DNA from: a virus
Lineage: Duplodnaviria > Heunggongvirae > Uroviricota > Caudoviricetes
Virus record (IMG/VR): IMGVR_UViG_3300043436_004750
Length of the DNA: 44,880 bases
Strand: one strand, 5' to 3'
Below are positions 3,950-44,859 of this stretch, piece after piece; positions within the stretch are counted from its first letter, which is position 1, and the number at the start of each line of letters is the position of its first letter. The position numbers were made by a program, and so were the translations under genes. The notes under the pieces are model-generated. The model was not told the DNA's origin. It was given only the letters and a program-made list of their open reading frames with translations, and did not search any database.

Positions 3950-6778
3950 ATGCCCTCATGGAAAAAAGTGATCCTTAGTGGATCAGACGCTGCTTTAAAC
4001 TCTCTTACCGTTTCAAACGGAATAACAGGTTCTTTATTTGGAACTGCTTCATACGCTACTGTAGCTGCAAATGGAGGAGTAACACAACTACTAGCAGGAC
4101 CAAATATAACACTATCACCAACAAATGGATTAGGTCAAGTTACCATTAGTTCATTAAGTGGTAGTGGTGGTGGCGGTTTTAATACTGCAACTGGCTCATA
4201 TGGTAGCTTTTACGATACAACAACACAAACAAATCCTGTCGGTAATATACCTCGTTCAATGTCTCTTGACACAACAGATATTACAAACGGGGTATCTGTA
4301 TCAGGTTCAACAAATCCTTTTAACACCTACATTAAAACAGAAAATGCGGGTGTATACGATATTCAATTTTCTGCACAAGTAGAAAAAACAGATAGTGGAA
4401 CTGATGATATAGTAATTTGGTTAAGAAAAAATGGAATTGACTTAACTGATACAGCTACAAGAATGACACTAACCGGGAATGCTACTAAAGTAGTAGCAGC
4501 TTGGAACTGGTTTGTAAATTCAGCAGCCAACGACTACTATCAAATTATATGGCAATCAGCCGATACGGGCATGAGGTTATACGCTGAACCACAAGACGGA
4601 ACTCCAGGTATCCCTTCCGTAATAGTAACAGTTAATAGAGTAGACCAATTCTTATCAAATACGGGTTCATTCTCAGGTTCATTTACAGGACAATTTACAG
4701 GTTCATTATTTGGAACAGCATCATTTGCAACAAGTGCTTCATTTGCTTCAACTGCTTCATTCCTAAACAGTACAACAAATGCTTTCATTCAAAATGGAAA
4801 CAGTTTTGGTACTCAAGCATTATTAGGAACTAATGATAATCAAAATTTAGCTTTAGAGACAAGCGGTTCTATTAGAATGTTTATATCTTCTAGTGGAAAT
4901 ATAGGTATTAATAAAGTAAACCCAAATGCAACATTAGATGTAAGCGGTAGTGCAATTATATCAGGATCTTTTACTATAACACCAGGAACTGTTAGAGAAT
5001 TACAAGTAAGAACTACAGGTGTTGATATAGGTAATCTAATAACAGATACTCATACAGTAACAGGTTCTTTATCAACATCAGGATCATTAACTGTAAACGG
5101 TAATACAATCATAACCGGTTCAACAATACTAAACGGATTACAGACCTTTCAAGGAACAACAGCATCAGATACAGCCCCACTAGGAGCTGAGTTATTAACA
5201 ACAGGCACAGGTGATGCCTCTTGGACAGGAGTCAATTTTGCAACAGGATATACTCACGTTCCAGGTTCAATAACAACACTAACATCACCACTTGCAGGGA
5301 TTGTTAACACCTTCTATCAAATGGTTTATACCATCACAGGAAGAACAGCAGGCTCAATTACAATTGCATTTGGTGGACAGTCCATTGCAGGGGTTACTGC
5401 AACAGGAGCATTTGGTCCTAGAGCAACAACAACAGATACACTTATTATCACACCAACAACAGATTTTAATGGAACAATTGTATTAAGCATTAAAACTATT
5501 GGAACTTCAAGTGCTACTACTACACTAAGAGATAGTACAGGAGTTACTACTAATGAAATAAGGGTAAGTAATATTACTACAAATACTTTTATTGGATTAA
5601 ACGCAGGACGTAGAAATACAACAGGGATTGTTAATTCATTCTTTGGTCAAAATGCAGGATCCAGTAATACAACAGGAGTAAGTAACGCATTCTTTGGTCA
5701 AAGTGCAGGATCCAGTAATACAACAGGAGCAAGTAACGCATTCTTTGGAAGAGAAGCAGGATTCAGTAATACAACAGGAACTAATAACACATCAGTTGGG
5801 GCAGCTGCATTATTTACTAATACAACAGGAGCTAGTAACACAGCAATCGGTGTAAATGCATTATTAAGTAATACAACAGCAAATAACAATACAGCAATCG
5901 GAGTAAATGCATTATCTAGTAATACAACAGCAAATAACAATACAGCAATAGGATTAGATGCATTACGATTTACAACAACGGGAGCTAGTAACACAGCAAT
6001 TGGACTTAGTGCATTACGAGTTAACACAACAGGAGCTAATAACACATCAGTTGGGGCAGCTGCATTATTTACTAATACAACAGGAGCTAGTAACACAGCA
6101 ATCGGAGTAAATGCATTATTTAATTTAGCTACAGGAAGTAGTAACACAGCAATAGGGTTTGATGCAGCTCGTAGAATATCAAACGGAACTAATTTAACAA
6201 CATCCAATAATTCTGTATTTTTAGGTCAAGACACAAGAGCATTAGCAGATAACCAAACCAACCAAATAGTAATTGGACATACCGCAATTGGACTTGGTTC
6301 AAATACTGTTGTATTAGGAAATTCTTCAATAGTAACAACAGCTCTAAGAGGAAGTGTAGGTATAGGAACAACATCACCAAATGCAACATTAGATGTAAAC
6401 GGTAGTGCAATTATATCAGGAAGTCTTTCACAAGGAAACAGTAATGTAGCAACCGGTACTTTTTCACATGCTGAAGGCTGGGAAACAGTAGCATTAGGTA
6501 CCTATCAACATGTTCAAGGCCAGTTTAATATTTCATCATCAGCACAGTCAGCTTTTATTATAGGAAATGGAACATCAAGTGGATCAAGAAGTAATCTAGT
6601 ATTTGCTTCTGGTTCACAATTCCAAGTAACAGGATCTTTAATAGTAAGAGATATCTTACAATTAGCAGTCCGTACCACAACTCCAACCCCAATAGAAGGA
6701 ATGATAATAGCATCAGGTTCAGCAGGGTCTAGTGTATTATATTACTATAACGGAACATCTTGGAATGCATTATTCTAA
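3950..6778 (+). CDS. long tail fibre/adhesin with YadA-head-like 17-aa repeats
   Basis: 942 aa; N-terminus MPSWKKVILSGS; about 11 NTTGxxNxxxGxxAxxx repeats; GIGTTSP linker motifs. Confidence 0.75.
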   Translation: MPSWKKVILSGSDAALNSLTVSNGITGSLFGTASYATVAANGGVTQLLAGPNITLSPTNGLGQVTISSLSGSGGGGFNTATGSYGSFYDTTTQTNPVGNIPRSMSLDTTDITNGVSVSGSTNPFNTYIKTENAGVYDIQFSAQVEKTDSGTDDIVIWLRKNGIDLTDTATRMTLTGNATKVVAAWNWFVNSAANDYYQIIWQSADTGMRLYAEPQDGTPGIPSVIVTVNRVDQFLSNTGSFSGSFTGQFTGSLFGTASFATSASFASTASFLNSTTNAFIQNGNSFGTQALLGTNDNQNLALETSGSIRMFISSSGNIGINKVNPNATLDVSGSAIISGSFTITPGTVRELQVRTTGVDIGNLITDTHTVTGSLSTSGSLTVNGNTIITGSTILNGLQTFQGTTASDTAPLGAELLTTGTGDASWTGVNFATGYTHVPGSITTLTSPLAGIVNTFYQMVYTITGRTAGSITIAFGGQSIAGVTATGAFGPRATTTDTLIITPTTDFNGTIVLSIKTIGTSSATTTLRDSTGVTTNEIRVSNITTNTFIGLNAGRRNTTGIVNSFFGQNAGSSNTTGVSNAFFGQSAGSSNTTGASNAFFGREAGFSNTTGTNNTSVGAAALFTNTTGASNTAIGVNALLSNTTANNNTAIGVNALSSNTTANNNTAIGLDALRFTTTGASNTAIGLSALRVNTTGANNTSVGAAALFTNTTGASNTAIGVNALFNLATGSSNTAIGFDAARRISNGTNLTTSNNSVFLGQDTRALADNQTNQIVIGHTAIGLGSNTVVLGNSSIVTTALRGSVGIGTTSPNATLDVNGSAIISGSLSQGNSNVATGTFSHAEGWETVALGTYQHVQGQFNISSSAQSAFIIGNGTSSGSRSNLVFASGSQFQVTGSLIVRDILQLAVRTTTPTPIEGMIIASGSAGSSVLYYYNGTSWNALF
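4922..6420 (+). repeat. 44-nt direct repeat pair (4922-4965 and 6377-6420) inside the fibre gene
   Basis: CCAAATGCAACATTAGATGTAA(G/A)CGGTAGTGCAATTATATCAGG, one mismatch; encodes PNATLDV(S/N)GSAIISG. Confidence 0.9.
5615..6175 (+). repeat. tandem 51-nt (17-codon) coding repeats, about 11 units
   Basis: Units such as NTTGASNTAIGVNALLS; exact 70-nt duplicate at 5781-5850 and 6036-6105, 255 nt (5 units) apart. Confidence 0.9.
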
Positions 6779-10103: not shown

Positions 10104-10133
10104 ATGCCTATTTATAATAAAGTAAATAGGCAT
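10104..10133 (+). promoter_or_regulatory. leader hairpin enclosing the late promoter of the HNH gene
   Basis: Perfect 11-bp stem ATGCCTATTTA/TAAATAGGCAT ending 8 nt before ATG 10142; CTATTTAT starts in the 5' arm. Confidence 0.7.
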
Positions 10134-10141
10134 TTTTTATT

Positions 10142-10888
10142 ATGGATTATCAAAGAATTTATAATCAAATAGTTGATCGAGCAAAAAAAGAAAATAGGTT
10201 ATACGGAAAAGGTATATATTATGAAAGACATCATATAATCCCAAAGTGCATGGGAGGGGAAGGTAGAGTTGAGCAGTGGAAAACCCATCCAAACATTGTA
10301 GTATTGACACCAAGAGAGCATTTTGTATGTCATTGGCTACTGTGTAGAACCTACCCTAAAAACAGAAGATTAGCACATGCATTTTGGTTTATGTCAAAAC
10401 AGAACGGACCTACGCAACAAAGAGATTATGTAGTAAGTTCGAGAACGTATGCTGAAGCAGTGAATAACTTAGAATTCACAGAAGAGCATAAAGAAAAAAT
10501 TAGAAAAACAAGAGTAGGTAAGAAAACTGTGGTACATCCGCAGACAAACGAGATTAGATATGTTCCAAGTGAAGAATTAAATTACTGGTTAGAGCAAGGA
10601 TGGGAGAATACAAATTACACTAGAGGAAAGAAGGGATTGATATCAAAAGAAGGGAGTAAAGTCCTCGCAGAAGCTAGAAAAAAAGATCAAACAGGTAAAA
10701 CAGGTTTACAGGCAAAAGCTGCAAAAGGACCTTACACAGTCATCTTTGAATCAGGACAGAAATATACAGCAGGCAGCTATCCAGAACTTTCAAAACTAAC
10801 AGGAATATCATACTCAACTCTCCAGCACAGAATGACACACAAACCAGAAGTCTTTGAAAGAGGTTGGAAAATCTATAAGGGAGTATAG
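10142..10888 (+). CDS. free-standing HNH homing endonuclease
   Basis: ERHHIIPKCMGG...LTPREHFVCHWLL catalytic region; sits between tube and chaperone genes. Confidence 0.85.
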   Translation: MDYQRIYNQIVDRAKKENRLYGKGIYYERHHIIPKCMGGEGRVEQWKTHPNIVVLTPREHFVCHWLLCRTYPKNRRLAHAFWFMSKQNGPTQQRDYVVSSRTYAEAVNNLEFTEEHKEKIRKTRVGKKTVVHPQTNEIRYVPSEELNYWLEQGWENTNYTRGKKGLISKEGSKVLAEARKKDQTGKTGLQAKAAKGPYTVIFESGQKYTAGSYPELSKLTGISYSTLQHRMTHKPEVFERGWKIYKGV

Positions 10889-20632: not shown

Positions 20633-20670
20633 TATATAAATATCTTTAAGTGCTATTTATATTAAAGAAG

Positions 20671-20750
20671 AGTACTGCAACTACTTAAAAAAAATATTAC
20701 GGAGATTTTAGAAGAACACCTTGTTGCAGAGGGCTTATTCTAATTTCTCC
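20671..20750 (+). ncRNA. kissing-loop leader element, copy A
   Basis: AGTA[CTGCAAC]TACT, then GGAGA-TT-TTAGAA..CCTT[GTTGCAG]AGGG..TTCTAA-TT-TCTCC; the two loops are complementary. Confidence 0.75.
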
Positions 20751-20764
20751 TTTTTTTATTTAAT

Positions 20765-21499
20765 ATGGTAGGAATTTATAAAATTACAAGTCCAAGTGGA
20801 AAAGTTTATATAGGGCAAAGTGTTGATTTGGAAAGAAGAAAATGTGAGTACTTATCACCAAGTAACAGTAAAAGTCAACGAAAGCTTCACAACTCAATAG
20901 TGAAATACGGTTTCTCTACTCATATCTTCGAGATAGTGGAAGAATGTGCTATCAAGGAATTGAACACCCGAGAGAGACACTGGCAGGATTTTTACAATGT
21001 ACTAGAGGAAGGACTAAACTGCAGACTAACAACTACATTAGATCGGTCAGGAAAGGTATCAAAGGAAACTGATAGAAAAAGATCGGAAAAGAAGAAAAAA
21101 CCGGTACTACAGTATTCGTTACAAGGTATTTTAATTAAGGAATGGAGCTCAATTAAAGAAGCAGGTCAAGCACTAGGTATACAGACAGGTAACATACCAG
21201 CATGCTGTAAAGAGAAAAAATTCTCAGTAGGAAAGTTTATTTGGAGATATAAAGCAAATACCGTAGAGCAAACAATAGAAGTAGGTAATAAAACACAGAC
21301 ATCCAGTAAAGTAGGTAGAATGTGGTCAGGAAGAAGTAAAAAACCTGTACTACAGTATACAAAAGAAGGTACTTTTGTTAAAGAGTGGAAATCAATAGTA
21401 GAAGCAGCAAAAAATTCAGCAATTAGAGAAACAGGTATAATAAATTGCTGTAAATACAGAATCAAAACATCAGGAGGGTTTATTTGGATATATAAATAA
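20765..21499 (+). CDS. GIY-YIG homing endonuclease with two NUMOD1-like domains
   Basis: GIYKITSPSGKVYIGQS; two KPVLQY...KEWxSIxEA...CC...FIWxY repeats. Confidence 0.9.
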   Translation: MVGIYKITSPSGKVYIGQSVDLERRKCEYLSPSNSKSQRKLHNSIVKYGFSTHIFEIVEECAIKELNTRERHWQDFYNVLEEGLNCRLTTTLDRSGKVSKETDRKRSEKKKKPVLQYSLQGILIKEWSSIKEAGQALGIQTGNIPACCKEKKFSVGKFIWRYKANTVEQTIEVGNKTQTSSKVGRMWSGRSKKPVLQYTKEGTFVKEWKSIVEAAKNSAIRETGIINCCKYRIKTSGGFIWIYK

Positions 21500-22859: not shown

Positions 22860-22897
22860 CGGTTTGGGAAAAAACTTGCTATTTATATTAAATAGAA

Positions 22898-22976
22898 GGT
22901 ACTGGTCCTACCGATAAAAGCATTACGGAGATTTTAAAAAGACACTACGGACCAGGTAGTTATTTTTAATTTCTCC
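22898..22976 (+). ncRNA. kissing-loop leader element, copy B
   Basis: GGTA[CTGGTCC]TACC, then GGAGA-TT-TTAAAA..ACTAC[GGACCAG]GTAGT..TTTTAA-TT-TCTCC. Confidence 0.8.
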
Positions 22977-22990
22977 TTTTTTTATTTAAT

Positions 22991-23617
22991 ATGAATTACC
23001 AAAAAATCTATAATCAAATAATTGATCGAGCAAAGGATAGAGAATTAAACTGTTATAAAGAAAACCATCATATTATTCCAAGGTGTATGGGTGGAACTAA
23101 TATTAAGGACAACTTGGTAGCATTAACTGCAAGAGAGCACTTTATATCCCATTGGCTGCTAACCAGAATACATCCGGAAAATAAAAAACTGGTACGGGCC
23201 TTTTGGGGAATGTGCAATCAAAAAAATAAAGGTAGAGACTATAGAGTTGGTAGTAAAGCCTATGAAGAGTCCAAGACAGCATTTTCTAAAATCCAATCAG
23301 AAAAAATGTTAGGAAGTAATAATCCTCAATATAACAAGATACCATGGAATAAAGGAATACCAGCATCAGAGAGTTCAAATAAAAAGAGATCACAAGCACT
23401 ATCAGGTGAGAATCATTTTATGTTCGGAAAACACCATACGGAGGATACTATACAGAAACTTAAACGTCCAAAAACACAGGAGCATATAGAAGCAATGAAA
23501 GGACCTCGAAAACCTTACGGACCTCAAGTAAAAGTAATTTGCCCCCACTGTAACAAGCAAGGAGGCAATTCTATGAGAAGATGGCATTTTGAAAATTGTA
23601 AAAACATAGAGTTGTAA
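22991..23617 (+). CDS. HNH homing endonuclease with NUMOD3-like and C-terminal Zn-ribbon modules
   Basis: ENHHIIPRCMGG...LTAREHFISHWLL; C-terminal CPHCNKQGGNSMRRWHFENC. Confidence 0.85.
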   Translation: MNYQKIYNQIIDRAKDRELNCYKENHHIIPRCMGGTNIKDNLVALTAREHFISHWLLTRIHPENKKLVRAFWGMCNQKNKGRDYRVGSKAYEESKTAFSKIQSEKMLGSNNPQYNKIPWNKGIPASESSNKKRSQALSGENHFMFGKHHTEDTIQKLKRPKTQEHIEAMKGPRKPYGPQVKVICPHCNKQGGNSMRRWHFENCKNIEL

Positions 23618-23679
23618 AATAAGAATATTTTTCGTATATTAAATAAAAGTAGGTTAGTAAAAAAAAGTTATATTTATAC

Positions 23680-24418: not shown

Positions 24419-24449
24419 GAAAAAAGTTGCTATTTATACTAAATAAGAA

Positions 24450-24528
24450 GGTACTCGTCCTACCGATAAAAACATTATGGAGATTTTAGAATGACACTAC
24501 GGACGAGGTAGTTATTTCTAATTTCTCC
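24450..24528 (+). ncRNA. kissing-loop leader element, copy C
   Basis: GGTA[CTCGTCC]TACC, then GGAGA-TT-TTAGAA..ACTAC[GGACGAG]GTAGT..TTCTAA-TT-TCTCC. Confidence 0.8.
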
Positions 24529-24542
24529 TTTTTTTATTTAAT

Positions 24543-25232
24543 ATGATAGGAATTTATAAAATAACAAATCCAAAAGGGAAAATTTACATAGGACAGAGTA
24601 CAAATATACAAAATAGATTTAAGCAGTACAAAAGTCCACATTTTAAAAAACAGTATAAGCTTTTTTATTCAATAGAAAAATATGGTTATAATTCACATGT
24701 ATTTGAAGTATTAGAAGAATGTGCTGAAAGTGTATTGAATATACGAGAAAGGTACTGGCAAGATTTCTATAATGTACTACAAGAGGGGTTGAATTTACAC
24801 TTAACAAAAACAGAGAGTAAACCAGCAAAGCATTCAGAAGAAACTAAGCAAAAAATTAAAGAAAGCTTAATTGGTAGAATAATGACAGACGAACATAAAA
24901 AACGTCTATCAATAGCTAGAATGGCACTACCTGAAGAAATTAGGAAAGCAGCAGGTCAGCATAAAAAAGGTTATAAAGAATCTACAGAGTCTAATAAGAA
25001 GAGATCGGAAAAGCTACTAGGAGCAGTCAGATCGGAAGAGACTAGGAATAAGATGAAAAAACCTAAGTCAAAGTCTCACAGTGAAAATATCTCAAAGGCA
25101 AAAAAGGGCTTAGAGAGTTTAATTAAAGGACGATTAGATCAAATAATAACCTGCCCCTACTGTAAAAAAGAAGGAGGAAATTCAGGAATGAAACGATGGC
25201 ATTTTGAAAAATGTTCAAAAAGAGAGTTGTAA
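24543..25232 (+). CDS. GIY-YIG homing endonuclease with NUMOD3 and Zn-ribbon modules
   Basis: GIYKITNPKGKIYIGQS; HSEETKQKI; CPYCKKEGGNSGMKRWHFEKC. Confidence 0.9.
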   Translation: MIGIYKITNPKGKIYIGQSTNIQNRFKQYKSPHFKKQYKLFYSIEKYGYNSHVFEVLEECAESVLNIRERYWQDFYNVLQEGLNLHLTKTESKPAKHSEETKQKIKESLIGRIMTDEHKKRLSIARMALPEEIRKAAGQHKKGYKESTESNKKRSEKLLGAVRSEETRNKMKKPKSKSHSENISKAKKGLESLIKGRLDQIITCPYCKKEGGNSGMKRWHFEKCSKREL

Positions 25233-25295
25233 AATCGAAAAAGGTTTCGTATATTATAATAAAGTAAAATAAAGTTAAATTAAAAAAAAGTTATT

Positions 25296-26149: not shown

Positions 26150-27223
26150 ATGGCAGCTAAAAAAGAAACAGCAAAAACCGCTAGCGAAATAATCAAAGGC
26201 GGTTTTAGTTTGAGCAACTTTAAAAAGAATAAAGGATTTAGCTCTCAATCTGTAAAGTTTAAAAGCCAAGACTGGATTCCAGTTTCAAAAGCCTTCCAAG
26301 ACATCGTCTCTTTACCAGGTATTCCAACAGGGCATATCACCTTACTAAGAGGGCATTCTGATACAGGAAAGACAACGCTTTTATTAGAAGCTGCTGTCTC
26401 TGCACAGAAAAGAGGTATACTACCAGTCTTTATTATTACTGAGATGAAATGGTCATGGCCACATGCTCAGACAATGGGGTTAGAAGTAGAAGAAGTGATC
26501 GATGAAGAGACAGGAGAGATTACTGACTATCAAGGATTTTTCTTATATGCTGATAGAGGTAGTTTAAATACTATTGAAGATGTAGCAGCGTATATTTTAG
26601 ATCTAATCGATGAACAAAAGAAAGGAAATCTTCCTTATGATTTATGCTTCTTCTGGGATTCAGTAGGATCCGTTCCATGTGAAATGTCTGTTAAATCCAA
26701 CAAAAACAACAATGAATGGGCAGCTGGTGCAATGTCTACACAATTTGGAAATAATGTAAATCAGAGGATAATGTTATCCAGAAAAGAGGGGAGTAAGTAC
26801 ACAAACACTTTAGTAGCTATCAACAAAGTGTGGACTGCTAAACCAGAACACATAATGGGGCAACCTCGATTAGAAAATAAAGGGGGAAAGGCAATGTGGT
26901 ACGATGCTACTGTTATTATAACCTTTGGAAACATTACAAATTCCGGTACTTCCAAAATCAAAGCAATTGCTAAAGGGAAAGAGTATGAATTTGCAAAAAA
27001 GACAAAAGTCCAAATTGAAAAAAATCACATAAATGGAATCCAATCAAGAGGACCTATCGTGATGACACAGCATGGATTTATAGCAGATGACAAGAAGGAG
27101 ATTGATACATATAAAGATGCACATAAGCACGAATGGGCCCACACCCTAGGATCAAACGAATTCTCAGTAGTAGTTGAAGCAGATATGGAGGAAGATCCGC
27201 TAAATAGAGAGATTATTGATTAA
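26150..27223 (+). CDS. uvsX: RecA/UvsX-like recombinase
   Basis: 357 aa; Walker A GHSDTGKT; FFWDSVGS Walker B region. Confidence 0.85.
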   Translation: MAAKKETAKTASEIIKGGFSLSNFKKNKGFSSQSVKFKSQDWIPVSKAFQDIVSLPGIPTGHITLLRGHSDTGKTTLLLEAAVSAQKRGILPVFIITEMKWSWPHAQTMGLEVEEVIDEETGEITDYQGFFLYADRGSLNTIEDVAAYILDLIDEQKKGNLPYDLCFFWDSVGSVPCEMSVKSNKNNNEWAAGAMSTQFGNNVNQRIMLSRKEGSKYTNTLVAINKVWTAKPEHIMGQPRLENKGGKAMWYDATVIITFGNITNSGTSKIKAIAKGKEYEFAKKTKVQIEKNHINGIQSRGPIVMTQHGFIADDKKEIDTYKDAHKHEWAHTLGSNEFSVVVEADMEEDPLNREIID

Positions 27224-27250
27224 TTTATAGAAAAGTTGACTATTTATGTA

Positions 27251-27335
27251 TGTAGTGTCGGAGCTACAAATGTAAATAAAATATCAACTAAAGCTATAGG
27301 CAAGTAGAGACTCCGACCTCGAAAGCCATAGCTTT
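27251..27335 (+). ncRNA. kissing-loop leader element, divergent copy D
   Basis: TGTAG[TGTCGGAG]CTACA, then AAAGCTAT-A-GGC..GAG[ACTCCGAC]CTC..GCC-ATAGCTTT. Confidence 0.7.
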
Positions 27336-27342
27336 TTTTATT

Positions 27343-27993
27343 ATGACAGGAATATATAAAATAACAAATCCTAATGGAAAGATTTACATTGGGCAAAGCG
27401 TTTGCATCGAAAGAAGAAAGGTTATTTATAAAAACGAAAAATGCAAACGACAACCTAAAGTGTACAATTCCATAAAGAAATATGGATTCTCCCAACACAT
27501 TTTTGAAATTATAGAAGAATGTACAGTTCAAGAACTAAATAAAAGAGAGAGGTATTGGCAAGACTTCTACGAAGTATTAGGAGAAAACGGATTGAACCTC
27601 AGCTTAACAAACTCAAACGATAAGTCAGGACACATATCAGAAGAAGTTAAAAAAGTAATCTCAGAAAAGCTAACAGGAAGAGAACGCTCTCAAGAACATT
27701 GTAACAATATTGGAAAAGCTAAAAAAGGAAAAGAGAGTTGGTGGAAAGGGCACATACGGACAGAAGAACACCAGAAGAACTTAACTGAATCACTAAAGGG
27801 AAAGTCCTCCTGGAGTAAAGGAAAAACAGGATGCTACTCAGAAGAAACGTACAAGAAGTGGTCTGAGAATAAGCAGGGAGATAAAAATCCAATGTACGGA
27901 AAGAAGCAGAAAGAAATTGAATGTCCGCATTGTAAAAAAGTAGGAGGAGTCAATGTAATGAAACGTTGGCATTTTCAAAATTGTAAGAAATAG
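27343..27993 (+). CDS. GIY-YIG homing endonuclease with NUMOD3 and Zn-ribbon modules
   Basis: GIYKITNPNGKIYIGQS; CPHCKKVGGVNVMKRWHFQNC. Confidence 0.9.
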   Translation: MTGIYKITNPNGKIYIGQSVCIERRKVIYKNEKCKRQPKVYNSIKKYGFSQHIFEIIEECTVQELNKRERYWQDFYEVLGENGLNLSLTNSNDKSGHISEEVKKVISEKLTGRERSQEHCNNIGKAKKGKESWWKGHIRTEEHQKNLTESLKGKSSWSKGKTGCYSEETYKKWSENKQGDKNPMYGKKQKEIECPHCKKVGGVNVMKRWHFQNCKK

Positions 27994-27999
27994 AAAGTT

Positions 28000-38777: not shown

Positions 38778-38865
38778 GGAAGAGTAAGCCAAGTCGGTCT
38801 ACGGGTCGCGGTCTTGAAAACCGTTGGGTGTAACAGCCGTGTGAGTTCAAGTCTCACCTCTTCCG
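38778..38865 (+). tRNA. tRNA-Ser(TGA)
   Basis: GGAAGAG/CTCTTCC acceptor; GCGGT-CTTGAAA-ACCGT; long variable arm. Confidence 0.9.
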
Positions 38866-38871
38866 CAATAC

Positions 38872-38943
38872 TGAGTTATAGTGTAACGGTTAGCACAAAA
38901 CACTTTGACTGTTTTAGTCTAGGTTCGAATCCTAGTAGCTCAG
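38872..38943 (+). tRNA. tRNA-Gln(TTG)
   Basis: TGAGTTA/TAGCTCA; AAACA-CTTTGAC-TGTTT. Confidence 0.9.
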
Positions 38944-39158
38944 CAAATAATTGTGAGTATTGAAATCCTCTCCCAACACTTGATCAGTAAGTAGGACGGT
39001 TAGTAAAGAAAGCATTATCAGTAAGTAGTGGAGAAATCCATGCGGAGAAAACGATGCAAGACGCAAGTACAGGGAACCAGCCCGATGGCTTTGCTTACGG
39101 ACATTACAGTAGTTTTGAGATGGGCGAATTCTACTTTAAAAAAATAATCCCTTCACCA

Positions 39159-39234
39159 CTGGATGTAGAGGAGCCCGGTTTATCTCGCTAGCCTTGGACG
39201 CTAGAGCACGCAGGTTCGAATCCTGCCTACCAGA
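39159..39234 (+). tRNA. tRNA-Pro(TGG)
   Basis: CTAGC-CTTGGAC-GCTAG; two acceptor mismatches at 5:68 and 6:67. Confidence 0.8.
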
Positions 39235-39298
39235 CCGAGAGACTGTTACTAATTCATAGGAGCGTTAAAGGACTTACGCCTGCATAGAATTAGATTTT

Positions 39299-39371
39299 GC
39301 CTTCGAAGCTCATGTGGACGGGCACCGGGCTTTTAACTCGGGGGTAGCTGGTTCGAGGCCAGCCGGGGGTA
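39299..39371 (+). tRNA. tRNA-Lys(TTT)
   Basis: CCGGG-CTTTTAA-CTCGG; T loop TTCGAGG. Confidence 0.85.
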
Positions 39372-39453
39372 CGATAGTCAGATCGCAACTGGCACCAGAT
39401 AGGGTTTTTGATTCACTGTTCCCTCTGAAATAACAAAAAGACAGGAAAAGCTT

Positions 39454-39524
39454 GCCTTGTTGGCGTAATGGTAGCGTATTTGTTTTACATGCAAAGGGCG
39501 ATAGTTCGATTCTATCACAAGGTA
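39454..39524 (+). tRNA. tRNA-Val(TAC)
   Basis: GCCTTGT/ACAAGGT; TTTGT-TTTACAT-GCAAA. Confidence 0.85.
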
Positions 39525-39623
39525 CAAAATTCTGGGTAGTAAGTAAAATACCGGCAAGTATTTTCAAGTCTATAAGGAGTCTATTATGAGTTATTAATTT
39601 GCCGATGAAAGCTTGTTGTAGTT

Positions 39624-39695
39624 TCGTTCTTAGTGGAATGGTGACCACGCTGCCCGTGGAGGGTGGAGAAGCAGGTTCGATTCCTGTAGAATGAT
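39624..39695 (+). tRNA. tRNA of undetermined identity (loop CGTGGAG; TGG with G33)
   Basis: Complete cloverleaf TCGTTCT/AGAATGA, normal D and T arms; anticodon loop lacks U33. Confidence 0.55.
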
Positions 39696-39701
39696 CAAAT
39701 T

Positions 39702-39784
39702 GGGATGCTTCAGTCACTGGTGTGATAAGCGGTCTGTAAAATCGTTGCTGTAAGAAGCGTGTGGTTCGATTCCACAGTATCCCA
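39702..39784 (+). tRNA. tRNA-Tyr(GTA)
   Basis: GGGATGC/GTATCCC; GCGGT-CTGTAAA-ATCGT; long variable arm. Confidence 0.9.
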
Positions 39785-39789
39785 CAACA

Positions 39790-39862
39790 GGGTCTTTCGT
39801 ATAGATGGTTCGTACGTCCGCCTGAAGAGCGAAAGGAGCAGGTTCGATTCCTGCAGGACCCA
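39790..39862 (+). tRNA. tRNA-Phe(GAA)
   Basis: GGGTCTT/AGGACCC; loop CTGAAGA. Confidence 0.88.
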
Positions 39863-39941
39863 CGTAAGTCGCTGAAACCTTAAAACTGGCGAAATTCAAA
39901 TAAGTAAGTATTAGGTGACTATTCGGAGAGACGGATAAATT

Positions 39942-40013
39942 GGGTTTGTCGTATAAAGGTTATTACGGGTGACTGTTAATCACTTTATGAAGGTTCGATT
40001 CCTTCCAGGCCCG
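39942..40013 (+). tRNA. tRNA-Asn(GTT)
   Basis: GGGTTTG/CAGGCCC; GGTGA-CTGTTAA-TCACT. Confidence 0.9.
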
Positions 40014-40020
40014 CAAAACT

Positions 40021-40092
40021 GCTCCTATAGTAGAATGGTTAGCACACATTCCTGATAAGAATGAAAAGAAGGTTCAATTCCTTCTAGGAGTA
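40021..40092 (+). tRNA. tRNA-Ile(GAT)
   Basis: GCTCCTA/TAGGAGT; CATTC-CTGATAA-GAATG. Confidence 0.9.
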
Positions 40093-40098
40093 CAAAAT

Positions 40099-40184
40099 GG
40101 AAAGTAAAACAATCAGGGTATTGTCACCGCCTGCTAAGCGAGTGGTTCTGTAAAAGGAATGGATTTCGAATATTCTGCTTTCCG
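40099..40184 (+). tRNA. tRNA-Ser(GCT)
   Basis: GGAAAGT/GCTTTCC; loop CTGCTAA; long variable arm; T53-A61 instead of G53-C61. Confidence 0.8.
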
Positions 40185-40189
40185 CAATT

Positions 40190-40257
40190 ACCGAGAGGTC
40201 AAGGACCATGGATGGCTCATATCCAACCATAGAATGGAGCATTACCATTTCTCGGTA
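40190..40257 (+). tRNA. atypical 68-nt tRNA(CAT), possibly elongator Met
   Basis: ACCGAGA/TCTCGGT; minimal D hairpin GGTC-AAG-GACC; loop CTCATAT; T arm AATGG-AGCATTA-CCATT. Confidence 0.6.
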
Positions 40258-40264
40258 CTAACAT

Positions 40265-40338
40265 GGTGATTGTAGCTGAATTGGTAAAGCGTCTGATTGT
40301 GGTTCAGGAGATTGTGGGTTCGAGTCCCATCTTTCACA
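40265..40338 (+). tRNA. tRNA-His(GTG)
   Basis: Encoded G-1; TCTGA-TTGTGGT-TCAGG; acceptor mismatches at 5:68 and 6:67; A73. Confidence 0.82.
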
Positions 40339-40344
40339 CAAAAT

Positions 40345-40418
40345 ACCTCCGTGATGGAACTGGAATACATATCGATCTTAAACGTCGAGTTTTGAGGGTT
40401 CGAATCCCTTCGGAGGTA
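40345..40418 (+). tRNA. tRNA-Leu(TAA), short variable arm
   Basis: ACCTCCG/CGGAGGT; TCGAT-CTTAAAC-GTCGA. Confidence 0.85.
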
Positions 40419-40464
40419 CTGTAGACTTTTTGAAATATTAGCCTATTTATAATAAAGAATAAGT

Positions 40465-41118
40465 ATGGCTAATATCAAAGAGAATAAGAAATACCATTTC
40501 ACTTATAAGACAACAAATCTTATAAACAATAAGTACTACTTGGGAATGCATTCAACTAACCATCTAGATGACGGTTACTTAGGAAGCGGTAAGAGGTTGT
40601 ACTACGAACTAAATAAGTACGGTAGAGACAATTTTAAATTTGAAATACTGGAACAATTTGATTCGAGAGAAGAATTAGTTCAAGCTGAGATTAAGTTAAT
40701 AACAGAGCAGGATTTAACTAATCAAAACTGTTTAAATCTAAGTAGAGGAGGTAGTGGAGGTATTCATAACGAAGAGCATTACGCAGCTTTTTCAAAAGGA
40801 AGAGAACAAAGTAGCTCCAGAGGCGGAATCACTTCTCAAAAAAGGTTTAGGAACAACCCAGAAGAAGTTAAGAGAAGAGCCTTTTTACAGGGAAAGTCTT
40901 TAACTAGATACTACGAGGAAAGACCAGGTACCTTCAAAGGGAAGGTACATACATCTGAAACTATTAATAAGATGAAACAGTCCAAACAAAATCAAGGAAG
41001 AGGAGAGGATAACTCACAGTACGGTACTTGTTGGATAACAAATGAAAAAGAGAATACAAAAATACGCAAAGGAGATACAATCCCAGAAGGATGGAGATTG
41101 GGAAGAAAATTAAAATAA
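40465..41118 (+). CDS. Seg-like GIY-YIG homing endonuclease in the tRNA array
   Basis: HFTYKTTNLINNKYYLGMHST...YLGSG; NUMOD3-like HTSETINKM. Confidence 0.85.
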   Translation: MANIKENKKYHFTYKTTNLINNKYYLGMHSTNHLDDGYLGSGKRLYYELNKYGRDNFKFEILEQFDSREELVQAEIKLITEQDLTNQNCLNLSRGGSGGIHNEEHYAAFSKGREQSSSRGGITSQKRFRNNPEEVKRRAFLQGKSLTRYYEERPGTFKGKVHTSETINKMKQSKQNQGRGEDNSQYGTCWITNEKENTKIRKGDTIPEGWRLGRKLK

Positions 41119-41120
41119 CT

Positions 41121-41192
41121 GGTCTTATAGTTTAATTGGAAAAACTTATCGCTACGAACGATAGAATTCAGGTTCGAGACCTGATAGGACCT
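41121..41192 (+). tRNA. tRNA-Arg(ACG)
   Basis: GGTCTTA/TAGGACC; TATCG-CTACGAA-CGATA. Confidence 0.9.
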
Positions 41193-41197
41193 CAACT

Positions 41198-41268
41198 GCC
41201 CGTATAGTTCAAAGGAAGAACATATCTCTTCTAAAGATAGAATCCTGGTTCGAGTCCAGGTATGGGTT
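41198..41268 (+). tRNA. tRNA-Arg(TCT)
   Basis: GCCCGTA/TATGGGT; TATCT-CTTCTAA-AGATA. Confidence 0.9.
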
Positions 41269-41341
41269 CAAAAATCGTCTCATCATATTGAGTTAATTAG
41301 AAGATACATCTCTAAGTAGGTTAAACGATATCCTACAAAAT

Positions 41342-41413
41342 GCAAGTGAGGCTGAGGTAGCCGATGGAACTCCAAATCCCATGTTCGAGCAGGTTCGATT
41401 CCTGCCATTTGCG
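41342..41413 (+). tRNA. tRNA-Trp(CCA)
   Basis: GCAAGTG/CATTTGC; loop CTCCAAA; short D loop. Confidence 0.8.
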
Positions 41414-41447
41414 CAAAATATATTGTTTCATTAAAAATTAAGAAATC

Positions 41448-41954
41448 ATGAGTAAGTACCAAAAAACACTAGTAGTGGATTCAAGCTTTATCGCCCGGAG
41501 TATCATCTCAACAGAAAGAGCATTTGTGATTTCTTATAAAGGTAATGCAGAGGTAATAGCAGAACATCCAGAAACATTTGGATTAGTAAATCCAAATCTA
41601 GAGATTTACAAACCTTCTATTATTAGAGTATTTACATACGTAAAGCAGCATATACATAAAGTTCCACTAACAAGAGAAAACATCTATAAAAGAGATAATT
41701 ATGAATGTGTTTATTGTGGGAGTTCAAATCAAAGAACATTAACACTTGATCACGTTATCCCTCAATCAAAAGGAGGAAAAGATACTTGGGATAATTTAGT
41801 AACAGCATGCCGTACATGCAACCATGAAAAAGCAGATCTAACGTTAGAGGAATACGGTAAGGATATACCTGAACCAAAACGTCCACATTATTTAATGTTA
41901 CTAAGACAGGTTCAAGAAATGCCAAAAGAATGGGAAACATTTTTACTATTTTAG
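41448..41954 (+). CDS. HNH endonuclease (McrA-like family)
   Basis: RDNYECVYCG...LTLDHVIPQSKGGKDTWDNLVTACRTCNHEK. Confidence 0.9.
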   Translation: MSKYQKTLVVDSSFIARSIISTERAFVISYKGNAEVIAEHPETFGLVNPNLEIYKPSIIRVFTYVKQHIHKVPLTRENIYKRDNYECVYCGSSNQRTLTLDHVIPQSKGGKDTWDNLVTACRTCNHEKADLTLEEYGKDIPEPKRPHYLMLLRQVQEMPKEWETFLLF

Positions 41955-42154
41955 TTGGCTATTGCAAAATAATTTCTTATATTTAGGTATAATTAAAGAG
42001 ATACAAAAATCGGAATTGACCGAGGCACGTGGTTAACGGTATTGCACCGACTCGCTTAAGCCCTAAGAGCACTTTAATTTTAAATATAAAATACCTGCTA
42101 CGTAACGCACGATCGACGACACGTACTATCTGGAAAGTCAGATCAGGTAAATTT

Positions 42155-42225
42155 GGGCGATTGGTCGATTGGTTAGGCGCAGGATTGCAAACTCTGTTAG
42201 GTTGGTTCGATTCCAACATTGCCCT
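42155..42225 (+). tRNA. tRNA-Cys(GCA)
   Basis: GGGCGAT/ATTGCCC; loop TTGCAAA; U73. Confidence 0.85.
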
Positions 42226-42240
42226 CAAAAAAATCAAAAT

Positions 42241-42696
42241 ATGATAAAATTAGTAGATCTTTTAAAAGAAGTAGTAGATTTATATTTACCTAATGAATTA
42301 CATAGTAAAGATATTTCTATTGAGGTTAAAGAAGAGAATAAAAGAAAGTTTAAAGTAATATTAACATATAAAGATAATTATTACGAATTTATAGCACTCC
42401 CTTTACTAAATCCTAAAAGACCATCAATCAATTTTGGAGATACTGACAAACAAGGAATTAATTTAAACTTAAACAATTTATTAAATTCTCCACATTCTCC
42501 CAGAATATTAGCAGCTATTTTTGGACTATTGAGATATTGGGTTGACAAGTATGATATACGGGAATTTGAATATGGAGCTGAAGGTAATATAAGAACCAAA
42601 TTATACGATATGTACTTAACAAAACATTTTCCTGATTTCGAAAATTCACAAGAGAAATACGGAGAACATACACTACAGATATGGACCAAGAAGTAA
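42241..42696 (+). CDS. hypothetical protein
   Basis: ATG at 42241 (MIKLVDLLKE) preferred because the track start at 42169 lies inside tRNA-Cys. Confidence 0.7.
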   Translation: MIKLVDLLKEVVDLYLPNELHSKDISIEVKEENKRKFKVILTYKDNYYEFIALPLLNPKRPSINFGDTDKQGINLNLNNLLNSPHSPRILAAIFGLLRYWVDKYDIREFEYGAEGNIRTKLYDMYLTKHFPDFENSQEKYGEHTLQIWTKK

Positions 42697-42833
42697 TTTT
42701 AGTTAGGAAATTAGAACTCTTACAACATATTGAAAGAATATATAATATTGAAATAGGAGATGATGAAATAGAATTAATAATAACTTTTGAAGATTTAATT
42801 AACTTAGTTATTAAAAAAAGTTTGGCTATCTAA
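42681..42833 (+). CDS. 50-aa ORF resembling the C-terminal half of an acyl carrier protein (not in the ORF track)
   Basis: MDQEVILVRKLELLQHIERIYNIEIGDDEIELIITFEDLINLVIKKSLAI*; lacks the DSL serine. Confidence 0.45.
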   Translation: MDQEVILVRKLELLQHIERIYNIEIGDDEIELIITFEDLINLVIKKSLAI

Positions 42834-42896
42834 ATTATTTTTCATATATTTAGATATAAGAAAGTAAGATCATTGAAATATTGGATAAAATAAATT

Positions 42897-42972
42897 GCAC
42901 TTGTGGGCAAACTGGCAAAGCCGTCTGACTTAGAATCAGAAGATGTTGTGGGTTCGACTCCCACCAGGTGTA
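42897..42972 (+). tRNA. tRNA-Leu(TAG), short variable arm
   Basis: GCACTTG/CAGGTGT; TCTGA-CTTAGAA-TCAGA. Confidence 0.88.
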
Positions 42973-43169
42973 CAAAATTTAAAATCACTTGCTTGAAGAT
43001 AAACAGCTAATTTTACGTGGTGCTATCCTATTAAAAAAGAGTAAATATGCATATTAAACTGTACTAGCAGTTGTGTTTATTGTAGAGATATGAGGAGATG
43101 TCTACAGCTAGTGTAAGTCTAGCAATTTATATTCCACTAGAATTTGGACAAGTGATTTAAAATAAAAAT

Positions 43170-43234
43170 TAGAGTTAGCTTATAGTAAAGCAGCGGGGGC
43201 TAACCTGCAGAACGGATACGAAAACCGACTCTAA
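43170..43234 (+). ncRNA. degenerate tRNA-like cloverleaf
   Basis: TAGAGTT/GACTCTA; GCTT/AAGC D arm; GCGGG-GGCTAA-CCTGC; weak T arm with TACGAAA loop. Confidence 0.4.
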
Positions 43235-43240
43235 TTATCT

Positions 43241-43314
43241 GCTTCTGACGCATGAACGGTGGTGCACCTGATTTGTAACCAGGAATAGAGTCGGTTCGAT
43301 CCCGACCAGAAGCT
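43241..43314 (+). tRNA. tRNA-Thr(TGT)
   Basis: GCTTCTG/CAGAAGC; loop TTTGTAA. Confidence 0.88.
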
Positions 43315-43409
43315 CAAAGTGTTGTTCCCTTGAGAAAGGAAAATAGAGTGGCTACACGGTTGTTGCAACAACTAGTAAAGACTAGCACAGAGGAACTCAA
43401 CCTCAAACT

Positions 43410-43481
43410 GCGAGTGTAGTATAACGGCTATTATGCCTGGCTTCCAACCAGGAGATGGGGTTTCGATTACCCCCATTCGCT
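43410..43481 (+). tRNA. tRNA-Gly(TCC)
   Basis: GCGAGTG/CATTCGC; CCTGG-CTTCCAA-CCAGG; T53-A61. Confidence 0.88.
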
Positions 43482-43532
43482 CAGGGGTGTGTGGGAACCC
43501 GTGAATATGTGATGAGCATACACCCACAATTT

Positions 43533-43604
43533 GCTACCGTCGTCTAATGGCCAGGACACAACACTTTCACTGTTGAAATGGGAGTTCGATTCTCCTCGGT
43601 AGTG
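43533..43604 (+). tRNA. tRNA-Glu(TTC)
   Basis: GCTACCG/CGGTAGT; CAACA-CTTTCAC-TGTTG. Confidence 0.9.
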
Positions 43605-43669
43605 CAAAATCCTATAGTAGGGTAGATGGAAGGTGCTAGTCAATAGCAAGCCGCTACTGTAGGTAAACT

Positions 43670-43744
43670 GGGGGCACATGTACCAAGGCTTGGCGAAAAA
43701 CACTTGCAATGTTTCTGTGATGGGTTCGATTCCCATTGTCTCCA
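43670..43744 (+). tRNA. tRNA-Ala(TGC)
   Basis: GGGGGCA/TGTCTCC with G3:U70; AAACA-CTTGCAA-TGTTT. Confidence 0.9.
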
Positions 43745-43790
43745 CTGTAGACTTTTTGAAAAGTTAGCCTATTTATTATAAAAGATAGAT

Positions 43791-44438
43791 ATGGCTAACA
43801 TTAAAGAGAATAAAAGATTTCATTTTACTTATAAGACAACAAATCTTATAAATGGAAGATATTATCTGGGAATGCATTCAACTAATCGTTTAGATGACGG
43901 TTATTTGGGAAGTGGTAAGAGACTGTACTATGAGTTGAATAAATACGGCAGAGACAATTTTAAATTTGAAATACTGAAGCAATTTGAATCAAGAGAACAA
44001 TTAGTTCAAGCTGAAATAAAATTAATAACAGAACACGATTTAAAAAATCCAAACTGCTTAAATTGTAAACCAGGAGGCGAAGGAGGGTTCCTAGATAGTA
44101 CTAGAATGGATAATGCAGAAAGGAAGCGCAGGTTTCTTGATAAGATGAGTAACGATAGTGAGTATAGGGAAGGATTTTTAGATAAGTGTAGGGAAAACTA
44201 CCCTAAGACCTTAGGAAAATATAAAGCATTAGGAACTCACGATTATGCAACTTTTAAAGGAAAAAAGCATACACCTGAAACTATTGAGAAAATGAAAGAG
44301 AGTAAGAAGGATTACGGAAAAGGATCTACAAATTCTCAATACGGAACTTGTTGGATAACAAATGAAGTTGAAAATAAAAAAATATACAAAGGCGACTCAA
44401 TTCCTCAAGGATGGAAATTGGGAAGGAAATTAAAATAA
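43791..44438 (+). CDS. Seg-like GIY-YIG homing endonuclease, paralogue of 40465-41118
   Basis: HFTYKTTNLINGRYYLGMHST...YLGSG; shared C-terminus NSQYGTCWITNE...GRKLK. Confidence 0.85.
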   Translation: MANIKENKRFHFTYKTTNLINGRYYLGMHSTNRLDDGYLGSGKRLYYELNKYGRDNFKFEILKQFESREQLVQAEIKLITEHDLKNPNCLNCKPGGEGGFLDSTRMDNAERKRRFLDKMSNDSEYREGFLDKCRENYPKTLGKYKALGTHDYATFKGKKHTPETIEKMKESKKDYGKGSTNSQYGTCWITNEVENKKIYKGDSIPQGWKLGRKLK

Positions 44439-44442
44439 TTTT

Positions 44443-44514
44443 AGTCTATTGGTCCAGGGGAATGGATGCCTGCCTGTCACGTAGGAGACCCGGGTTCGAA
44501 TCCCGGATAGACCG
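44443..44514 (+). tRNA. tRNA-Asp(GTC)
   Basis: CCTGC-CTGTCAC-GTAGG; A1:C72 mismatch; G73. Confidence 0.85.
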
Positions 44515-44521
44515 CAACAAT

Positions 44522-44597
44522 GGCGGGTGGATCCGGTTGGTATCGGGGGTAGTCTCATAAGCTACATTAAAGGAGGTTCGATTCCTCCACGTCGCAA
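44522..44597 (+). tRNA. initiator-like tRNA-fMet(CAT)
   Basis: GTAGT-CTCATAA-GCTAC; unpaired 1:72 and a bulged acceptor stem. Confidence 0.7.
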
Positions 44598-44786
44598 CAA
44601 AGCCGGTTTTGACACTCCGCTCATGGGAGGTCAGTTTTCTGGAGGAGAAAATTGGGATGCAGCATTGAGGGTTTTAAAAGTTTGTACCGACAAAGAATGG
44701 GTTTTGCCTGCAAAGCGTGTTTACGCCTTATAAACACAACTTGAAAATAGAAAGGGGTGTAGGTCAGCTTTAACCGAACCCTATTT

Positions 44787-44859
44787 GGACCTGTAGCTCA
44801 GTGGTAAGAGCGCCCGCCTCATAAGCGGAGGGTCGGAGGTTCAAATCCTCCCTGGTCCA
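44787..44859 (+). tRNA. tRNA(CAT), probably Ile2 (lysidine type)
   Basis: GGACCTG/CTGGTCC; TAGCTCAG D arm; loop CTCATAA; A73. Ile2 versus Met is an inference. Confidence 0.8.

Follow-up and report, generated by a model that had tools for sequence, protein, structure and literature searches.

The stretch of DNA analysed here (the window, 44,880 nucleotides at its full length) belongs to an uncultured T4-like Flavobacterium phage with approximately 84% identity to the cultured immuto phages. On its plus strand, a cassette consisting of a leader and an open reading frame (ORF) is inserted between the genes for a recombinase (stop codon at 27221-27223) and a 5'-3' exonuclease (ATG at 28000). In the immuto phages these two genes overlap and carry no insert, and BLAST homology to immuto ends at 27196 and picks up again at 28081. 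The ORF encodes a homing endonuclease that is 43% identical (E = 6e-54) to the product of a neighbouring endonuclease gene (24543-25232), which matches Pfam GIY-YIG. The exonuclease ATG lies 6 nt past the stop codon of the nuclease gene, and no promoter motif is present in this gap. A structured RNA, the 5' leader of this mobile cassette, is encoded by 27249-27335; cassette and leader have the following features.

27224..27999, plus strand: homing-endonuclease cassette (leader and ORF), delimited by BLAST against immuto
27230..27248, plus strand: promoter-like box GAAAAGTTGA-CTATTTAT-G, a late-type TATTTAT element with a conserved AAAAAGTTG upstream, from a site census
27251..27268, plus strand: first hairpin (H1), stem TGTAG (27251-27255), loop TGTCGGAG (27256-27263), CTACA (27264-27268), read directly
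27269..27289, plus strand: A-rich 21-nt linker AATGTAAATAAAATATCAACT, poorly conserved
27290..27335, plus strand: second hairpin (H2), AAAGCTAT-A-GGC / AAGTA / GAG / loop ACTCCGAC / CTC / GAAA / GCC-ATAGCTTT
27302..27324, plus strand: sarcin-ricin (bulged-G / loop E) signature, AGUA (27303-27306) opposite GAA (27321-23), from 45 relatives
27333..27342, plus strand: T7 run (27333-27339) followed by ATT, directly before the ATG at 27343, read directly
27343..27993, plus strand: GIY-YIG / NUMOD3 homing-endonuclease ORF, 216 amino acids (NUMOD3 E = 3.8e-10)

Anatomy of the leader RNA

The leader RNA of approximately 87 bases (leader D) contains two hairpins with complementary loops, and all elements that a first-pass annotation had described at 27251-27335 are found there when the sequence is read directly. 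The 8-nt loop of H1 comprises key 1, GTCGGAG (27257-27263), and H1 alone folds at -5.2 kcal/mol. H2, which alone folds at -14.8 kcal/mol, is composed of a lower stem (AAAGCTAT-a-GGC / GCC-ATAGCTTT), an internal loop (A-AGUA / GAA-A) and an upper stem (GAG/CTC) closed by the 8-nt loop ACTCCGAC (27310-27317), which comprises key 2, CTCCGAC (27311-27317). The proposed loop pairing over 7 bp is correct, GTCGGAG being the exact reverse complement of CTCCGAC; as a duplex, both keys yield -10.7 kcal/mol. The first three T's of the T7 run are the last bases of H2 and pair with AAA at its base, and the distance from the end of H2 to the AUG is 7 nt. The linker, 18-23 nt long in relatives, has the highest pairwise diversity of all segments (0.43). 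The minimum free energy (MFE) of the whole leader, -31.5 kcal/mol (z = -4.1), is better than that of 200 out of 200 shuffled sequences, and we are highly confident that the fold exists. In form, the stable H2 stem with the T7 run immediately behind it is an intrinsic terminator.

Two further readings of the fold were dropped. In many MFE folds GTTG and the box also pair with the linker, but this extra pairing lacks convincing covariation, and the box itself is near-palindromic, so that we make no claim for it. A K-turn in the internal loop of H2 is ruled out by the absence of tandem G.A pairs beside a 3-nt bulge. With respect to an antiterminator, the key helix runs into mismatches beyond 7-8 bp by inspection, and no structure competing with H2 was found. 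No description of this leader element was found in the literature and no known family in Rfam 15 matches leader D, the search returning a chance match to the terminator-like TEG147 (E = 0.38) and otherwise tRNAs.

One architecture in two sequence families

The first-pass annotation had regarded leader D as the fourth occurrence of a kissing-loop topology in the window and had proposed a descriptor-based search. Such a search, in which two hairpins, a loop complementarity of at least 7 nt and a T-run were the terms, gave six raw matches in the window against 0.07 per shuffle. Plus-strand matches with 7-nt loop complementarity correspond exactly to four endonuclease leaders, namely leader D and leaders A, B and C (20653-20767, 22879-22993 and 24430-24545). 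A kissing leader thus precedes four of the seven endonuclease genes in the window; of the other plus-strand ORFs with 70 or more amino acids, approximately 45 in number, none has one. As had been noted, the four keys differ (CTGCAAC, CTGGTCC and CTCGTCC in A-C versus GTCGGAG in D).

Other endonuclease genes of the window are arranged differently. An HNH-like endonuclease gene at 10142-10888 (MDYQRIYNQ...) possesses a simpler, single-hairpin leader (GCCTATTTA/TAAATAGGC, 10105-10144) followed by T6-ATT-ATG; unlike in leader D, the late-promoter box lies within the hairpin and forms its 5' arm. Transcripts begun at this box would be without the 5' arm, which is the logic of T4 I-TevI. The window further contains a cluster of 21 tRNA genes (38778-44859, Rfam), in which two SegE-like GIY-YIG genes (40465-41118 and 43791-44438; direct repeats of approximately 300 nt) are interspersed. 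Both have a CTATTTAT box 22 nt from the ATG (40443-40467, 43769-43793) and no structured leader, showing that the kissing leader is not universal to the endonuclease genes of this phage.

Covariance models separate leader D from the other three. The A-C model detects A, B and C with 94-101 bits and leaves 27249-27335 unmatched at E<10 with filters off; conversely, leader D reaches 106 bits with the D model, which fails to find A-C. The earlier statement that similarity between D and A-C is limited to the TAC of the first stem therefore holds for the RNA body, in which the models fail to cross-detect at E<10, and fails for the flanks, which are shared: both types have AAAAGTTG-CTATTTAT with a AAAAAGTTG-CTATTTATA box upstream and T-run-ATT-ATG downstream of a body of 85-90 nt. 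In both, the box is followed by a 5' hairpin and by a long T-run hairpin at the ATG, the loops pair over 7 bp with compensatory changes, and the leader is linked to GIY-YIG and HNH-like genes. They differ in that H1 begins 10-12 nt from the box in A-C and 2-3 nt from it in D, and in the D loops, which are 8 nt long with one unpaired base. As judged from these comparisons, D is not a fourth copy; it is a member of a second sequence family that has one architecture with A-C.

Both types occur within the same genomes, one 102-kb contig carrying four of each with eight different keys. Intermediates between the types were found neither among approximately 70 leaders nor in two complete related genomes, and a descriptor scan of these two genomes (330 kb) for a third sequence type yielded only leaders already detected by the models and AT-rich noise. 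Either of the two origins that had been envisaged, an old diversified family or convergence, may apply: common descent is hinted at by the flanks that both families share and by their equal length, while no intermediates were found.

We collected 45 distinct relatives of leader D, all in uncultured phage contigs, by four routes: a pattern for the lower stem, a metagenome pattern in which loop 2 was left free, a pattern of box and H1, and a covariance model run on related genomes. Neither leader type was found in cultured phages by blastn, or in immuto by covariance model search. Covariation was counted on the model-based alignment of the 45 relatives.

Kissing helix: 7/7 pairs covary; 315/315 cells paired (314 Watson-Crick, one U.G)
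H2 lower stem: 9/11 pairs covary; 99.6% of cells paired
H2 upper stem: 2/3 pairs covary; 99.3% of cells paired
H1 stem: 2/5 pairs covary (GC<->AU, UA<->CG); 97.3% of cells paired

All seven kissing pairs have changes on both sides, and sliding the partner by 1-3 columns reduces the pairing of the whole structure (26 pairs) from 99% to 28-43%. Since loop 1 was outside the metagenome pattern and H2 outside the pattern of box and H1, the covariation of the keys is no artefact of the search. Approximately 21 G.U cells in the stems are compatible with the plus strand only. Around 20 different keys occur among the D-type relatives, including GTCGGAG, GTAGGAG, GTGGATG, GTCGTAG, ATTGGAG, GTCAGAG, GTCGAGA, GTCGGAC, ATTGAGG, GTAACGG, GTGGAAG and GTTGCGG. 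Their diversity (pi 0.33) is near that of the free linker and exceeds that of the H1 stem (0.11) about threefold, and many of the changes are transversions, in matched pairs and without wobble intermediates. Of the 45 relatives, 39 have a run of at least six T's; in the other six this run is interrupted. The view that architecture rather than sequence is selected is thus borne out within D's own family, which keeps its topology by compensatory change, and a chance arrangement is excluded by the covariation together with the shuffles. With its box, 5' hairpin, long hairpin by the ATG and compensated loop pairing, D belongs to the architecture class of kissing-loop endonuclease leaders.

In a divergent D-type subgroup (L121, L130, L132, L136, L118 and L134), both H1 and the kissing keys are retained, as is the AGUA/GAA loop described below; this subgroup has GGUU(C/A)UUACU(A/U)(A/U)UAUG instead of the U-tract and is without the AAAAAGTTG upstream element.

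The internal loop of H2 was overlooked in the first-pass annotation. AGUA is found in 45/45 relatives and its opposite strand is GAA in 44/45 and AAA in 1/45, flanked in leader D by an A.A apposition (27302/27324). Its position is constant, 3 bp below the kissing loop, and the stems on both sides covary (GGC/GCC, GGU/ACC, AGU/GCU and others below; GAG/CUC, GGG/CCC, AGG/CCU and AAG/CUU above). AGUA/GAA and AGUA/AAA are canonical sequences of the sarcin-ricin motif (PMC1865062). By sequence and with the strands in the right order, the D-type loop between its Watson-Crick stems can thus be classed as a sarcin-ricin, or loop E, signature. rRNA, 5S rRNA, viroids and some riboswitches contain such motifs, which are not known from the mRNA leaders of phages; it is the sequence signature that is seen here. 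Leaders of the A-C family share the architecture but not the AGUA/GAA loop.

Loop-loop contacts are also made by the aptamers of lysine and purine riboswitches, and P2 of the lysine riboswitch contains a loop E/S-turn. As in leader D, an intramolecular loop-loop helix organises these leaders upstream of a terminator and, in the lysine riboswitch, one of the kissing loops sits on the helix that contains the S-turn. In contrast to riboswitches, leader D is devoid of a multi-way junction, a conserved unpaired pocket and an Rfam match, and its linker, bulge and loop bases are its most variable positions. By any criterion tested, leader D is no riboswitch.

Promoter box, keys and the genes behind the leader

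The CTATTTAT element of leader D is located at 27240-27247. All 14 CTATTTAT sites in the window lie on the plus strand, in intergenic DNA just 5' of genes, with 6.1 sites expected on both strands, and the promoter box is kept in 45/45 D-type relatives. Ordinary genes have a spacing of 10-45 nt between box and ATG; in the four structured leaders it amounts to 103-113 nt. Close relatives of the D nuclease protein (L002-L015, IMG/VR) are encoded behind a box that is 3-12 nt before the ATG, with no structured leader between them, which indicates that the leader is an insert between promoter and gene. A gap of just 3 nt moreover implies that transcription starts at most approximately 4 nt past the box, and thereby that H1, which begins 2 nt past the TATTTATA box or 3 nt past CTATTTAT, is perhaps located at the exact 5' end; H1 may be the 5'-terminal hairpin of the transcript.

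A hairpin at this place would also suit an element of RNA stability or processing, either a 5' hairpin locked to the 3' hairpin so as to shield the message from nucleases or a quasi-continuous helix cut by RNase III. Next to the spacing from the box and the 3-nt gap in the relatives, the second position of the H1 stem agrees with this, as it is always a purine (G in 41 and A in 4 relatives) and covaries, and so does the first position, which pairs poorly (6 mismatches). However, a protective hairpin needs no complementary partner loop, and the greater distance of H1 from the box in the A-C family does not fit either. We consider such an element very unlikely.

D-type leaders precede GIY-YIG genes and HNH-like MNYQRIYDQ genes with an I-HmuI NUMOD-like domain, and also, as had been missed in the first-pass annotation, genes outside the GIY-YIG and HNH types, which are either Vsr/PvuRts1I-like (PD-(D/E)xK) or of an MKKCSKCK type. 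Examples behind D-type leaders of these latter kinds are the following.

L068:652-1269, plus strand: Vsr/PvuRts1I-like or MKKCSKCK type
L066:1170-1847, plus strand: Vsr/PvuRts1I-like or MKKCSKCK type
L073:599-1285, minus strand: Vsr/PvuRts1I-like or MKKCSKCK type

MKKCSKCK proteins measure 150-230 amino acids, have no Pfam assignment and may represent an unrecognised endonuclease family. One and the same key is found with different gene families, so that the key is not tied to the protein. The leader is a portable module; the unrelated ORFs that follow it are far less conserved. MKRWHF(E/Q)(N/K)C forms the C-terminal end of three genes of the window, the HNH-like B and the GIY-YIG C and D (23573-23617, 25188-25232 and 27955-27993), and in related contigs a GGFIWKY end is common to GIY-YIG and HNH-like genes. 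Nuclease domains seem to have been swapped within a constant cassette frame.

Some leaders are found next to remnants of genes. At L057:2333-2504 (minus strand), a solo A-C-type leader with intact box, keys (CTGCGAC/GTCGCAG) and T-run is followed by a 19-amino-acid remnant and then directly by a gene for a gp32-like ssDNA-binding protein, from which it can be concluded that the nuclease ORF was deleted and the leader kept. Intact D-type leaders at L026:6159-6246 (minus strand) and L133:8624-8709 (plus strand) precede HNH-like ORFs of just 44 and 74 codons, respectively, which look like decaying nuclease genes with a preserved leader.

These data also bear on a DNA-level element, in the form of protein-bound inverted repeats, a nuclease target or a recombination site. 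In DNA the keys are a 7-bp inverted repeat, and the occurrence of the same leader with different ORF families could reflect its use as portable homology for ORF swapping. Nevertheless, around 20 different keys cannot be the site of one protein, one key accompanies different nuclease families, the G.U cells fit one strand only, and T-run, box and gene are all on the plus strand. Even taken together with a chance arrangement, a DNA-level element is extremely improbable.

It had further been suggested that different keys prevent cross-pairing between transcripts. The D key is compatible with this, being energetically orthogonal to A-C (-10.7 kcal/mol for cognate pairing versus -3.8 kcal/mol or weaker for non-cognate pairing), but the distinctness of keys within genomes is not significant, all-distinct keys having a probability by chance of approximately 0.06. 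With pairing inside one molecule, insulation between keys is moreover not obviously needed.

Candidate roles of the leader

Homing endonucleases require an expression that is high enough to spread and too low to harm the phage. Outside T4 the way in which this balance is set is, to our knowledge, largely unknown, and we know of nothing reported for hosts like the Bacteroidota, which lack Shine-Dalgarno-led initiation. From its sequence features we propose, with moderate confidence, that leader D is cis-acting and limits nuclease expression via a terminator and/or a start-site hairpin that is locked by the kissing contact. Transcripts would either read through from the recombinase gene or begin at the TATTTAT box of the cassette. 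The kissing contact would lock the weak 3-bp upper stem, H2 closing fast and staying closed, and most transcripts would end at the U-tract and/or have their start region, 7 nt downstream, occluded. The nuclease would then be made at low output, by a minor and perhaps timed share of the transcripts.

The terminator-like form of H2 (-14.8 kcal/mol) with U7, adjoining the AUG, argues for this restraint. An early-type promoter lies within approximately 22 nt of the nuclease stop codon in 23/44 cassettes, and an early-type promoter or a late box is near this stop in 26/44, compared to a background of 17% for either motif; promoters at the 3' ends are expected if the cassette interrupts transcription. 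An embedded early-type promoter would restart transcription of the downstream phage gene. The early-type motif reads TTG-N19-21-TAnnTTTA, for instance at 23612-23642 and 25225-25259, and cassette D (27343-27993) is without one.

Several points count against the proposed restraint. A strong terminator in cassette D would be polar on the exonuclease, a replication gene, and the 6/45 relatives without an uninterrupted U-tract imply that termination is not a universal core function. A plain terminator could do without the kissing partner and the S-turn, and the kissing contact could equally weaken the function of H2. Finally, lowering expression by means of a consensus promoter placed right before a terminator would be odd, and this order better fits a selected short RNA. 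Given this order, matched keys that evolve fast and the survival of leaders beyond their nuclease genes, a selected short RNA or a protein-gated switch fits at least as well as the restraint in cis.

T4 restrains its homing endonucleases by hairpins and terminators, and the endonucleases of its family (I-TevI/II/III, segB, mobE), each with a late promoter of its own and, near the start, a hairpin in the RNA or a terminator, resemble the D cassette (PMC2988022). A further likeness is that the 3' end of the cassette contains restart promoters that serve the host gene downstream. In T4, however, late transcripts escape the inhibitory hairpin since their promoter is located within it, and the hairpins hide a Shine-Dalgarno site; in leader D the box is 42 nt upstream of H2, and a Shine-Dalgarno site is absent. 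A translational hairpin of the T4 type was accordingly not found in leader D, whose box (27240-27247) is outside H2 and whose ATG is 7 nt outside the stem. Conversely, no T4 element has the second kissing hairpin, the variable keys or the S-turn, the latter present as a signature, of leader D.

The kissing contact itself recalls the antisense control of plasmids and attenuators by kissing loops, as in ColE1 RNA I/RNA II with Rom, R1 CopA/CopT and pT181. Like leader D, these systems use fully paired 7-nt loop-loop helices in which the loop sequence sets specificity and, in systems of the pT181 type, pairing decides on terminator formation. They differ in that two molecules are made from opposite strands, which renders complementarity automatic; in leader D both loops lie on one transcript, and each change of key therefore needs two mutations. 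By this analogy, the leader could be a stand-alone small RNA of approximately 90 nt, from promoter box to U-tract, possibly with nascent transcripts from its own cassette as targets in trans, its variable key being a private address per cassette comparable to the incompatibility groups of antisense-controlled plasmids. In agreement with this are the near-consensus promoter with a terminator-like hairpin 87 nt later, a leader conservation far above that of the unrelated ORFs behind, and keys that diversify approximately three times faster than the H1 stem by matched, mostly transversional changes. Same-type keys within one contig all differ (8/8 keys in the 102-kb contig), with weak non-cognate pairing, and leaders survive the deletion of the nuclease (A-C type, L057) or stand before a 44-amino-acid stump (D type, L026). 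On the other hand, both keys are on one molecule and would pair in cis long before they could in trans, the within-genome distinctness of the keys falls short of significance (p ~0.06) and six relatives lack the intact U-tract that would set the 3' end. We regard a small RNA as unlikely. A more specific form of this idea, in which the keys are under diversifying selection as a private RNA lock per selfish cassette, with the leader RNA acting on transcripts of its own cassette only and the S-turn as a platform for readout, is quite unlikely; if true, homing endonucleases would be controlled by an addressable circuit resembling plasmid incompatibility.

Alternatively, the S-turn and the kissing complex could be recognised, whatever the key, by a phage or host protein for which the leader is an operator; binding would turn nuclease expression on or off at a fixed point of the infection. 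Rom, which binds ColE1 kissing complexes, is a precedent. The AGUA/GAA loop is invariant in sequence and position amid covarying surroundings, sarcin-ricin / loop E motifs are typical docking sites of proteins, and a plain terminator would have no need of the motif. Nonetheless, the A-C family shares the architecture without this loop, no candidate protein was identified, and the S-turn may merely shape the helix so that the loops meet, as in the lysine riboswitch. A protein operator, too, appears unlikely to us.

Whichever way the leader RNA acts, two families without detectable similarity that have one architecture and dozens of compensatory changes each are unusually clean evidence that the kissing contact is selected. 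Approximately 20 natural, mutually orthogonal 7-nt keys in a constant scaffold moreover offer ready variants for studying loop-loop effects on terminator and start-site hairpins, and the leader element merits an entry in Rfam.

Elsewhere in the window, a 942-amino-acid ORF (3950-6778) contains ten tandem repeats of 51 nt (17 codons) at 5614-6217.
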